A DNA stretch of 59,042 nucleotides, filler included, from Porpidia crustulata (taxonomy: Eukaryota): assembly GCA_964255105.1 (NCBI GenBank). It is 7 parts of 7 records of this genome, joined end to end, with 100 filler letters (N's around TTAATTAATTAA, not from the genome) between each part and the next. Parts side by side here need not be neighbours in the genome. Positions count along the whole stretch, not along the records: positions 50,723 to 59,042 come from CAXUWE010001136.1; 6 more parts are not named here. One strand, written 5' to 3'. The notes beneath the pieces were generated by a model. The model saw only the letters and a program-made list of their open reading frames with translations, ran no database searches and had not been told where the DNA came from. The position numbers and the translations under genes were made by a program. This document shows, piece by piece, positions 51,103-57,034 of the stretch; the first letter of the stretch is position 1; each line of letters starts with the position of its first letter.

Positions 51103-53457
51103 TCACATCATCATCAGCCGGGTGGTTCTCCTCTCCGGGTGCCTGCGCCCAGGTCCGAGCATGGAGGTCTGTTGCGCGACGCGGTAGGCGTGTTGCTCGC
51201 AATAGGTTTTGCCGTTCATTTCGAAATAGTCGTCACGGAGGATCTTGTGGCAGTCCTGGATCAAGAATCAGTAATCGTATTTTCAAATATCATGGTCATT
51301 TTGCCATCACTTACCTGACAGGTGAAGCAGTGCGGATGGCACTTCTGCTTCGAATCTGTTTCGACGTACTGCCCCTCGATGCCTCGGTCGCACTGCTTGC
51401 ACAGCGAGCCGTTGAGCTGATGGTAGTGCCGGTTGCAATACGGATGGTTGCCGAGAACGTAGAAATCCGCCGTTGGGAAAGGCGCTCTGCAGGTCTTACA
51501 GACAAAACAGTCCCGGTGATAGCGTCCGGACAGCTGACCGTCCTTGGAACTGACGGACTTTCCTTTGATGAGCTCTCCACAGCCTCGGCAATTACCTTTG
51601 TTGGCTGTCGTAGGTCTTCGCACTGGAGACGAAGGGGCACGAGGCTGGGCGAAAGGCGCGGGGGATATTCGAAGACTATCAGGAAGCGGAGGACTCGAGA
51701 GGAACGATTCTGGTGGTGATCCTACGGGTGAAGTACGTCCACTCTGGACGGCCGGATCCGTGTGTACATCTGGTGCAAGTAAGACTGGCTCACGCTGCGG
51801 TGGCGGATCCATGGGCCTCGAGTACATTGGTCTACTAAAACTTGGCGGCTGAGCACGACGTCTAGAGGCCGGCTCTTCAGCCGTCGGGGCAGTACGTATG
51901 CTCTTCGGGAAATTGTCCATTGGATCCGTACCGTCGCGCGCGTCAGAAGATTTTCGTTCAGGTGACCCAGGCAGCGGAGGTGTTGATCTCGAGCTGCCAC
52001 TCTTACGGTCCGAACCAGAAGATTCATTTGATGACGTTGATTCGTTTGGTGTATGGTATGGATTGCCAACGCTGAACTCGAGCGCGCGAGTAGGCAAAGG
52101 TAATGGAGGCGCATCTTCGAATCGCTGATCATTCTTGGCTCCTGTCCTACTGGTACTTCGGGAAGATCCAGTGTCGAATTTCTCAGGCGAAATTGAGTTT
52201 GCCCTGCCTCGACTGGGTTTGAAAGAACTTGTGCTTCCAATCTCGTGAAGCGGCCTGTTAGCTGCAGCTACAGAAGGCGTTACTCTATGAGAAATGCGTC
52301 CAGGTTCCGAGGGTCTCCTTTCCTTGGGAGCCTTTGTGGAATCTGCAGGCTCCGTTCGATTGTGTCCGTCCGTAGGGTAAGTATGTGATCGGTTTTCTTG
52401 CCGCAGCATTTCAAATTGATGTTCCTCTTGGCTATTCGGATTAGATATCGGGGGTTGATCGTTAGGCTGGGAAGGTCTGCGAGGTAAGGGGAGAGCAGGT
52501 ACGGCGGGCGGATCAAGTCTCTCCCGGTCAACAGTGCTTCGAGGGCCCCCGGAGATACTCGAAAGGGATGGATTTCGCGTATAATTTGAACTTGATGTTG
52601 ATGGCCGCTGAACATGGTTCTTCCCACTGGCGGAACTTGATGGGCGTACATATTCGCCATGGCTACTCATCGTGACCGTTCTCTTAATTCCCGAATGACG
52701 AGAGTCTCCCTTATCCCTTACGTTGAAAGGTCCTGGTGCGATAGTATTCATCCTTTGTAACACGCTACCTCCTCCATTCCCGCGAGGACTGAGAGGCGCA
52801 TATCTTTGATCTAACTGAGCTTGTCCTCTCGGATTTACATCGTCCGGTGTGAAAGGACGTTTTATCTCTGCAGGAGTTGTTGGGGTAGCGCTACGTGATT
52901 TAGCTATTGGGAAGGGCGGAAAAGCGCAGTCCTGGGGTAGCGAAATATCTGGTGACGGAGGCCGAGAGGGTAGTGGAGAGGTTGCACTCCTAGGCAGTGC
53001 CCGACGAATTGACTTTCGCCCATTTCCATACGGAATCGGGGATGCACTCCGGGGATTGCTGGTACTGCTGCGAGGTGAGAATTGACTAGGAGGTAACGGG
53101 TACCCCTTATCTACTATAGTCAGTATAAAACTTCCATCTTTTTAACGCTTGTTTCACATACTGCTAACTGATGCATCAATCCGAGGCGGCGGTGGCATCT
53201 TGCGAGATTTCAAAAGCGATGGACCGTTTGCGAGCGAAGCGGGCGGTGCGAACGGTCCATGCAAAGCTTGCAAACGGGTCTCCGGGAGAGGAGGGACTGC
53301 AATGTCTCAGTAGCTATCAACAGATGAGGAAACTATCAAGCAGTAGCGTACCGTTCGAGCAGGCGTGATCACCCATCAGAGAAATCTCAATAGACGCATT
53401 ACAATTGGAACATTTGATGGTTGGCAAGAAGCTCGATGAGCGAGTTAAGGAATCCAT
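51103..53457 (-). CDS. LIM-domain protein, multi-exon
   Basis: N-terminal KCSNCNASIEISLMGDHAC; C-terminal LIM fingers CRGC..YHRDCFVCKTC..YCNRH and CKQC..HPHCFTCQ/DCHK..YCEQH; ends RRTTRLMMM*. Confidence 0.88.
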
Positions 53458-53809: not shown

Positions 53810-53859
53810 GTGATCAGAGGACCGTGATCAGAGGACCGTGATCAGAGGACCGTGATCAG
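53810..53859. repeat. Tandem repeat, 14-bp unit GTGATCAGAGGACC, about 3.6 copies
   Basis: Three exact copies plus GTGATCAG. Confidence 0.95.
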
Positions 53860-55053
53860 GAATTAGGCCAAGTCCAGGATTGAATATCATTTATCATTAT
53901 TGACCAATAATCCATATGCATTCGTCGATGTGGTATTCGGACATGTGGACTGACGGTGAGGATAAAGATGGAGGAAGCCGGCGATATGTTCGCTGTCAAT
54001 GCCTTAGGCACATTTCACAATTCTGATACACGTCTTGTTCTCGACCAGATTCGCGGCTAGTAACATTAGTGCCAAATCTACGCCTGTAACATACCATTTC
54101 AATTGGTACGCCAGATCTGGACGCCCGCAATCGGACGTCTTTGATAAGCCAAAAGCCACCAGGATATTTAAGCATTTTCATTCCCATTCTCGTTCCTTGC
54201 CATATAACACACGTCCTCCAACGTCGAACGCCTGGATGCTACATTGCTATCGTACACACCATGAATCTGTATTCGGTGGTGGTGGTGGTTTGCGTGGTTT
54301 ATTGATTCCTGCGATTTCTCAAATTTCAATCCCTATCAAACGTCAGGGCGAGGAAGGCTTTTAGCCCCTTATGATAGATCCCCTGTCGATCAATTAATTA
54401 CATAACCCCAATTACCGATGCCCTAAATCGACCTCCAAGGTGCCAAGGCAATTGGGTGAAATGATATTAAAACCGCGATTGAAGAATTAAATGTATCATT
54501 ATATTTATCACTTGGTGATACCACGGTGCCATCCCACAATCATTCTACAAGGAATCGGTAGTGTCCACTTGGCTGTTGACAGCAATGGGTTTTGCGAGGT
54601 AGCCAAATTAGCTTCTACGTTCCCCTGTTCTTAACCTTCAACTAGGGTTGTACAAATCGACCGTGCATGAACTTTGATACCTCTGGGGAGCCGAATGCAA
54701 ATGGAAAAGCGCGAGCATTGCTCATTGGGGTGTGGGGCCCACCTGAATTGCATTTCAGTTTCAGCGGCCATGTTGATGTACTCAGGCGCCGGAAAGTAGT
54801 AAGTGACCTTCGATACTTTTACCTACCTACCTCGTAATGGACTAAGGTACCTTAACACGTTAAGTGCCTACGACCTACCTACTGATAAGGAGAAGTACTA
54901 GCAGTGGGGTATCGGTAGTGTGCCCTAATGAGATACGCGATTTTGGTGGGGTTATGCTACTAACGGAGTACAAATTTTCTCGAGTCCCCCCAACATCCAA
55001 CTTCTACAAAATATACAACACCAAAGTCTTACCAAATCTACATTGTATCCTGA

Positions 55054-55260
55054 ATGTATTCGAATACACTCAACTCGTAAGTCAACCAGAATCTGTAATG
55101 GCAGGAGAGCCTGGCTTCCCTGTCGGCATTGAGAAACAAGGGAGAGCCACTATTCAATCAGCATTTACTGATGAAGCATATCAGTATACACCACCCCTTC
55201 AATCACGGACGTAAATCCTCTTCCGGCGGCGACTCGAGTAGTTTTCCAAAGACGAGATAA
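55054..55260 (+). promoter_or_regulatory. Intron-split upstream ORF (32 aa) in the INO1 leader
   Basis: ATG at 55054; intron 55077-55184 (GTAAGT..ACTGAT..CAG); spliced peptide MYSNTLNSIHHPFNHGRKSSSGGDSSSFPKTR*; stop 60 nt before the INO1 ATG. Confidence 0.65.
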
Positions 55261-55320
55261 TTAGATTGCTGAAAGGCACGCAAACAATCCAATTGACTCT
55301 ATAATTCATACTCAATCGCT

Positions 55321-57034
55321 ATGGCTCCTCACGCTGAAGGTCCTAATGGTTCTATGAATGGCTCAAGCCACGCAAACGGGAACAATGACACCAAGGAGCT
55401 GTTCACCGTCATTTCTCCAAATGTCATCTACACGGAGAACGAGATCAAAACCAAGTATGTGTATCGCACAACTTCGGTAGCCAAGTCTGGCGATGGGAAG
55501 TACGTTGCTACACCGAAGGAGACTATTTATGACTTCAAAGTGGAACGTAAAGTTGGGAAAGTAGGTATGATGCTAGTGGGCTGGGGTGGCAATAATGGTA
55601 CCACTGTCACTGCAGGCATTATAGCTAACCGTCGTGGCCTCGTCTGGGATACTCGCGAAGGACAGAGAGCTGCAAATTACTATGGATCTGTTGTTATGGG
55701 GTCTACGATGAAGTTGGGAACAGAGGCAAAGACGGGAAAAGAGATCAATATTCCTTTCCATGATGTTCTACCAATGGTTCACCCCAACGATCTCGTAATC
55801 GGTGGGTGGGATATCAGCGGTATGAATATGGCTGCGGCCATGGATAGAGCTGCTGTATTGGAACCTATTTTGAAAAACATGGTCAAAAAGGAAATGGCCG
55901 AGATGAAACCTCTTCCGAGTATCTATTACCCTGATTTCATAGCTGCGAACCAAGAAAAGCGTGCAGACAATCTTCTCGAGGGATCTAGGGCTTCGATGGC
56001 TCACGTCGAAAAACTCCGCAAGGACATTCGGTAAATCTTTCTATTCCCAGGTAGATACTACGCTGACTTATGATAGCGACTTCAAGGCGACCCATGGCCT
56101 CGACAAGGTTATTGTTCAATGGACTGCCAATACTGAGCGTTATGCCGACATCATTGAGGGAGTAAATGACACTGCGGACAACCTTATGAAATCGATCGAG
56201 TCTGGACACGAAGAAGTCTCCCCATCAACCGTATTTGCTGTAGCTTGCATACTCGAGAACGCCCCATTCATCAATGGATCCCCTCAGAACACCTTTGTAC
56301 CTGGCGCCATTCAGCTTGCCGAAAAGTATGGCTCTTTCGTTGGTGGAGACGACTTCAAATCTGGACAAACCAAGATGAAATCCGCCCTTGTGGACTTTAT
56401 GATTAATGCTGGGATCAAGCTTACCTCGATTGCAAGCTACAATCATCTTGGCAATAACGACGGAATGAATCTAAGCTCTCAGAGGCAATTCCGCTCCAAA
56501 GAGATTTCCAAATCCAATGTGGTGGATGACATGGTGGAAGCCAACAGCGTGCTGTATAAGCCAGGAGAACATCCTGACCATACTGTGGTGATCAAATACA
56601 TGCCTGCTGTTGGGGACAATAAACGTGCATTGGATGAGTATTATGCAGAGATCTTTATGGGTGGCCATCAGACAATCAGCTTGTTCAACGTCTGCGAGGA
56701 CTCTCTGTTGGCGTCTCCACTCATCATCGACCTCGTGCTTATTGCCGAATTGATGACTCGGATCACCTGGAGGGCTAGTGCTACGGACGGGACGGCTACT
56801 AAGGACTACAAGGGATTCCATAGTGTACTCAGCATCTTGAGCTACATGCTGAAGGTATGTTCCTTATGATTTCATTATTACTGTTGCTGACTTTCGCAGG
56901 CTCCCTTGACGCCTCCAGGTACACCTGTGATTAATGCTTTGGCAAAGCAGCGCGGGGCTCTGACCAATATCTTCCGTGCATGTGTAGGTCTTCAGCCAGA
57001 GTCTGACATGACCCTCGAACATAAGCTTTTCTAG
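55321..57034 (+). CDS. INO1: myo-inositol-1-phosphate synthase, multi-exon
   Basis: [53 protein letters not shown]; ends LEHKLF*. Confidence 0.97.

Follow-up and report, generated by a model that had tools for sequence, protein, structure and literature searches.

INO1, the gene for myo-inositol-1-phosphate synthase, is preceded in filamentous ascomycetes by a short upstream open reading frame (uORF) that is almost certainly a functional conserved-peptide uORF (CPuORF). As far as the sequences tell, its start is always weak, being either an ACG in optimal context or an AUG with U at −3. We describe it here from its copy in Porpidia crustulata, which lies in a stretch of 59,042 nucleotides (from assembly GCA_964255105.1; "the window" hereafter means this whole stretch), and from relatives of that locus. 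The features are collected in Table 1.

Table 1. Features of the INO1 leader and gene in the window.
Feature	Position	Strand	Remarks
TATA-like TACAAA	54969..54974	+	found by eye; close relatives L003/L004 have TATAAA here
Hairpin position	55014..55053	+	no stable stem in the window; 55 nt fold at −0.3 kcal/mol
uORF exon 1, 23 nt	55054..55076	+	AUG start, where the family has ACG
Leader intron, 108 nt, phase 2	55077..55184	+	GTAAGT donor at 55077, CAG acceptor ending at 55184
Intronic AUG ORF, 38 codons	55098..55214	+	incidental, not conserved
uORF exon 2 to TAA	55185..55260	+	HHP[FY] block conserved; C-terminal half clade-specific; TAA ends at 55260
Spacer from uORF to INO1, 60 nt	55261..55320	+	AUG-free
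INO1 (myo-inositol-1-phosphate synthase) main ORF	55321..57034	+	predicted introns near 56031–56077 and 56855–56899

The downstream gene is identified as INO1 by its Pfam domains (PF07994/PF01658) and by 85%–86% identity to INO1 proteins of Lecanoromycetes lichen fungi, its best protein matches, and it is the single such locus in the P. crustulata genome. In a tree of Ino1 proteins, the window groups with L003 and L017 among the Lecanoromycetes (support 99), with no placement at the level of order. A preliminary description of this DNA had reported the uORF, its intron, a 32-codon peptide in the spliced form, a 60-nt distance to INO1, and the unspliced alternatives; all of these, re-derived from the sequence, are correct. 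The AUG of the uORF has U at both −3 and +4, a poor context, and the AUG of INO1 (55321) has G at both positions. A branch-like ACTGAT (55166–55171) is found 18 nt before the 3′ end of the leader intron, and a reading that ignores the intron ends after eight codons. A comparable spliced AUG ORF arose in five of 1,000 dinucleotide shuffles of the 340-nt leader. The exon 2 frame has no Pfam match. Two other ORFs were set aside, one of 86 codons from the ATG at 54954 because it begins upstream of the TATA-like site, and one of 29 codons from the ATG at 55171 because it starts within the leader intron.

Relatives point to splicing of this leader. Contig L057 has an intronless 538-codon INO1, a uORF joined at the same junction, and 162 nt upstream of the ACG; we read it as mRNA-derived sequence, with the caveat that intronless INO1 is known in genomic loci too. 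In a representative protein library, 22 of the 23 matches end in the joined uORF peptide, its start codon read as T, and one further match came from a separate search. The 14 gene models whose names were seen are all "hypothetical" or "uncharacterized" fungal proteins, and in Purpureocillium the locus tag of the uORF gene model adjoins that of INO1. Library match P0126, an unrelated repeat protein, was discarded. The one sequencing run that matched, X1, consists of a single unspliced contig, perhaps the source of the DNA studied here, and speaks neither for nor against splicing. From the relatives we infer splicing of the window leader at 55076/55185.

Homologues were sampled by anchoring on Ino1, the uORF not being used, in a metagenome scan from which only the best 80 of 170 confirmed stretches were kept, so that the sample is biased to close relatives. 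Six loci cut inside the leader were excluded (L021, L022, L028, L072, L075, and L031, the last with exon 2 only). Candidate uORFs were scored by similarity to the window peptide, with L029 and L040 recovered in a relaxed second pass. Among these best 80 of 170 stretches, the uORF is present in 73 of the 74 INO1 loci with a full leader and absent from L030. Counting the window, there are 74 copies, with 52 distinct coding sequences and 43 distinct peptides. The uORF-bearing clades of the Ino1 tree contain named proteins of Lecanoromycetes, Eurotiomycetes, Leotiomycetes, Sordariomycetes, and Dothideomycetes. The exception, L030, is a Podospora-like INO1 locus (INO1 AUG at ~2941) with neither the uORF intron nor exon 2. 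An exon-1-like stretch in which ACA replaces ACG lies ~90 nt before its main AUG, and is possibly a decayed copy of the uORF.

The preliminary description had staked the uORF on conservation of its peptide across Pezizomycotina, and the peptide is indeed conserved in 73 of 74 loci, with an omega of 0.21 in a codon model (lnL −2343.0 when free versus −2469.3 at omega 1; kappa came from a coarse grid and the tree was built on the same data). The constraint is concentrated in the first half, omega being 0.07 for aligned codons 2–17 and 0.56 for codons 18–32. Pairwise dN/dS is 0.26 in frame but rises to 1.3 and 1.6 when the frame is shifted (the pairs are non-independent), third-position bias is 0.55 versus 0.31 and 0.26, and indels are exclusively in-frame. 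The fixed intron position that had also been looked for is found as well, exon 1 being 23 nt long in 73/73 genomic copies, including the window. The whole uORF is 32 codons long in 44 copies, 31 in 29, and 28 in one (n = 74). N4, L6, S8, and H10 are unchanged in 43/43 distinct peptides; G15 is found in 39/43 and D27 in 35/43, both being altered in the AUG clade to which the window belongs. The C-terminal residues are the least conserved, the peptides having neither a PP nor a PS-stop motif in common. A dN/dS below 1 across distant taxa and a place in 73 of 74 INO1 leaders, unfused to the main ORF, are properties of a CPuORF. Its stop lies 34–202 nt upstream of INO1, in all three frames, so neither the length nor the frame of the spacer is conserved. 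A read-through fusion of the uORF and Ino1 was ruled out, as the spacer frame varies and stops follow.

Within the AUG clade the uORF is under continued constraint rather than decaying. The window differs from L003 by 11 synonymous and two non-synonymous changes, and from L017 by 13 and four (Fisher p < 1e-6), and intron and spacer are only 52%–54% alike against the same two loci. In the C-terminal half, 16–18 of 18 residues match inside the clade and 6–8 of 18 match ACG relatives, which match one another at 12–14; it would seem that this half was remodelled once and thereafter frozen. HGRKSSSGGDS, which the preliminary description had singled out for conservation, is a feature of this clade because of that remodelling and subsequent fixation, and the core of the family is instead residues 1–17.

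The start codon occupies one shared position, with ACG in 61 of the 74 copies and AUG in 13. The ACG forms have a near-fixed context, with A at −3 in 47/47 distinct sequences, and the AUG forms have U at −3 in 5/5; U at +4 is found in all distinct forms of both kinds. By comparison, the main AUG of INO1 has a purine at −3 in 50/52. Fungal Kozak context is marked by a purine at −3 in the available text of PMC7049704, and poor context is defined as a pyrimidine at −3 combined with a +4 base other than G in that of PMC8892498. At the level of sequence, then, both forms of the start are leaky, the ACG (A at −3) as well as the AUG (U at −3). Among the 52 distinct forms, none starts with an AUG that has a purine at −3, a combination that would be expected to silence INO1.

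AUG forms are found at three places on the Ino1 tree (the window clade, L037, and L039/L041), that is, by three changes. A single AUG clade is rejected (AU p ~1e-9, 38 locus rows), in a test that excluded every named protein and 14 rows that were gappy or near-identical, and that was made with the FastTree topology already viewed. On this tree, which has no outgroup root, the parsimonious older state is ACG. U makes up 26%–29% of the leaders, and its occurrence at −3 three times has a probability of ~2% by composition alone. The three AUG origins by themselves lend limited support, and the contrast with A in 47/47 ACG forms is stronger. A repeated exchange of two weak start types would be comparative evidence for selection on leakiness itself.

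The two start types also differ in what precedes them. Folding of the 55 nt before the start beats that of shuffled sequence (z < −2) in 23 of the 44 distinct ACG leaders and in none of nine AUG leaders; control windows reach this in 3/52 and 1/49 cases. A stem of eight pairs is 97% paired in 23 loci (22 with ACG, plus L039), with changes on both sides at four pairs and many G-U pairs. It scores above 500/500 shuffles and every slid control, statistics that are inflated because the 23 loci were hand-picked by eye and are related. The 3′ end of the hairpin lies mostly 13–15 nt upstream of the ACG. Among the AUG forms, L039 retains six pairs, L003 and L017 have a small stem against the AUG, and the window has none; nor does the window have a stem 3′ of the start codon (−1.8 kcal/mol). 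The hairpin matches no Rfam family in the four loci scanned. Conceivably, it re-forms once the scanning complex has passed and keeps that complex on the near-cognate codon, and would be needless for an AUG. Other, shorter hairpins of differing sequence are seen ~10–22 nt before the ACG in L035, L061, and L062, and likewise shorter ones of other sequence at a similar place in L049, L052, L071, and L076.

We think it probable, from these comparisons, that the uORF throttles INO1 translation through a leaky start combined with a stalling peptide gated by a metabolite, inositol. By default, most scanning ribosomes would bypass the weak uORF start and Ino1 would be made. When inositol, or something made from it, is plentiful, the nascent peptide would halt its ribosome on the uORF stop codon or close to it, and a queue would form back to the weak start, the start–stop distance of 93–96 nt corresponding to about three footprints. 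A queue over the weak start would raise uORF initiation and lower Ino1 synthesis, with the mRNA possibly passing to NMD. In the lichen-fungus clade, a single C-to-U change would have turned the start into AUG; the context would have become poor, the upstream hairpin would have decayed, and remodelling of the C-terminal half would have been followed by renewed fixation. Inositol is inferred as the signal solely from the identity of the downstream gene. AAP, AZIN1, and HOL1 provide precedents for weak start, stall, and queue in the available portions of PMC11550727 and PMC2811004. Counting against a stall of the ODC/AZIN kind, the C-terminal residues are the least conserved ones of the INO1 uORF, and in ODC/AZIN uCCs they hold the stall motif, according to the accessible text of PMC2811004.

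A bolder form of this reading, possible but doubtful, is that filamentous ascomycetes have an undescribed inositol-sensing nascent peptide whose initiation is held narrowly weak by interchangeable solutions: ACG with an optimal context and a covarying hairpin 13–15 nt upstream or, at least three independent times, AUG with U at −3 and the hairpin reduced or lost. The natural start variants would offer a ready way to probe ribosome queuing and the role of a 5′-side hairpin in near-cognate initiation. On the main reading, inositol synthesis in filamentous ascomycetes would be under translational control by a peptide that annotation misses or calls "hypothetical"; to our knowledge, few metabolite-sensing nascent peptides are known in eukaryotes.

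The peptide might also act as a brake without answering to inositol, being constitutive or responding to eIF1/eIF5 start stringency, carbon or phosphate status, or ER stress. Both start types would respond to stringency; the conserved poor-context uORFs of Hox mRNAs sense global stringency in the available parts of PMC8892498. We nevertheless regard such a brake as improbable, as neither an omega of 0.07 across 16 codons nor a fixed length is needed for sensing stringency, and the characterized uORFs of this type on biosynthetic genes respond to the pathway product in what is accessible of PMC2811004 and PMC11550727. Distinctly unlikely, too, is action through a partner protein, for instance a lipid regulator or Ino1 itself, which the peptide would meet at the tunnel exit or once released, instead of through a small-molecule pocket in the ribosome. 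Residues 1–17 would sit near the tunnel exit with the ribosome at the stop, and the C-terminal half resembles a spacer, but the strict position in cis, the fixed length, and the enforced weakness of the start are what one would expect of a cis device, and a weak start would yield little free peptide.

We give very little credence to regulated retention of the leader intron as the switch, an NMT1-like swap of uORFs that the preliminary description had invoked. Neurospora NMT1 is spliced under a TPP riboswitch and has upstream AUGs in its leader intron, a feature common to the INO1 leader. The INO1 intron is invariant in position and contains AUGs in 44 of 51 loci, and unspliced RNA stops after eight codons in 34/51. 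However, that stop is missing from 17/51, occurs wherever the donor letters provide it, and is a by-product of the donor sequence, and the ORFs opened by the intronic AUGs share neither place, length, nor peptide. The intron itself is 48–467 nt long across loci and only 53% identical even within the AUG clade, with no Rfam match in 4/4 loci scanned. Unlike NMT1, the INO1 leader has an unconserved intron with no riboswitch match in the loci scanned, and it is the spliced form of its uORF that is conserved and selected. Beyond the uORF start, the spliced leader is free of further AUGs in 50/51 loci; the remaining locus has one immediately ahead of the main AUG. In L049 and L056 the best-scoring acceptor of the leader intron is AAG, giving an intron of 48 nt. 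The chance that the reading frame is accidental, or that an RNA or DNA element mimics coding (exon 1 in relatives lies between a conserved RNA hairpin and splice signals), is negligible, being refuted by the third-position bias, the frame-specific dN/dS, and the in-frame indels.

The inositol-gated stalling peptide that we favor would have parallels elsewhere. The sequence of the arginine attenuator peptide (AAP) is not known to be related to that of the INO1 uORF peptide. AAP (Neurospora arg-2, yeast CPA1) is likewise a short conserved fungal uORF with a leaky start on the gene of a biosynthetic enzyme, in the available text of PMC11550727. The INO1 uORF lies before a different gene, INO1 rather than arg-2/CPA1, and mostly starts with ACG, and its ligand and stalling are here proposals. 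The uCCs of ODC/AZIN1 share with it a conserved, mostly non-AUG start in good context, and show peptide-dependent repression and queuing, in the accessible parts of PMC2811004 and PMC11550727. Their conservation is C-terminal (PP, PS-stop), whereas that of the INO1 uORF is N-terminal with no such shared ending, and no ODC homologue lies downstream of it. In our assessment, the INO1 uORF would work like AAP or the uCCs yet belongs to neither family. The uORF of plant GDP-L-galactose phosphorylase (GGP/VTC2) is also conserved, starts with ACG, and precedes a biosynthetic gene; it differs in kingdom, gene, and peptide.

The uORF family itself is quite possibly already known, because there is reportedly work on an "inositol regulatory peptide" of Neurospora inl, which would be an orthologue. 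A literature search covering mainly freely accessible papers found no description of an INO1/inl uORF and no match to the phrase "inositol regulatory peptide", and the word inositol does not occur in the papers whose text was searched. The new part would then be the start-codon swap and the hairpin; even if the peptide has been described, we know of no report of an AUG/poor-context swap or of the hairpin for the inl uORF. Natural alleles with the two kinds of weak start make the queuing model testable.

Upstream, the position of the TACAAA suggests a transcription start before 55054. A block beginning with GTGGGG (54946–54966) is conserved upstream of this TATA-like site in the AUG clade (window, L003, L004, and L017), with a further GTGGGG copy in the window at 54904; we take the block to match SYGGRG, the CreA site motif. 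Across loci, promoter motifs have no fixed place, TATA being seen in 15/45, SYGGRG in 24/45, and E-box-like motifs in 11/45, at scattered positions. The intergenic region upstream of INO1 also holds a perfect 14-bp tandem repeat of 3.6 copies (53810–53859), and a LIM-domain protein gene (51261–52751, − strand) is divergent from INO1.
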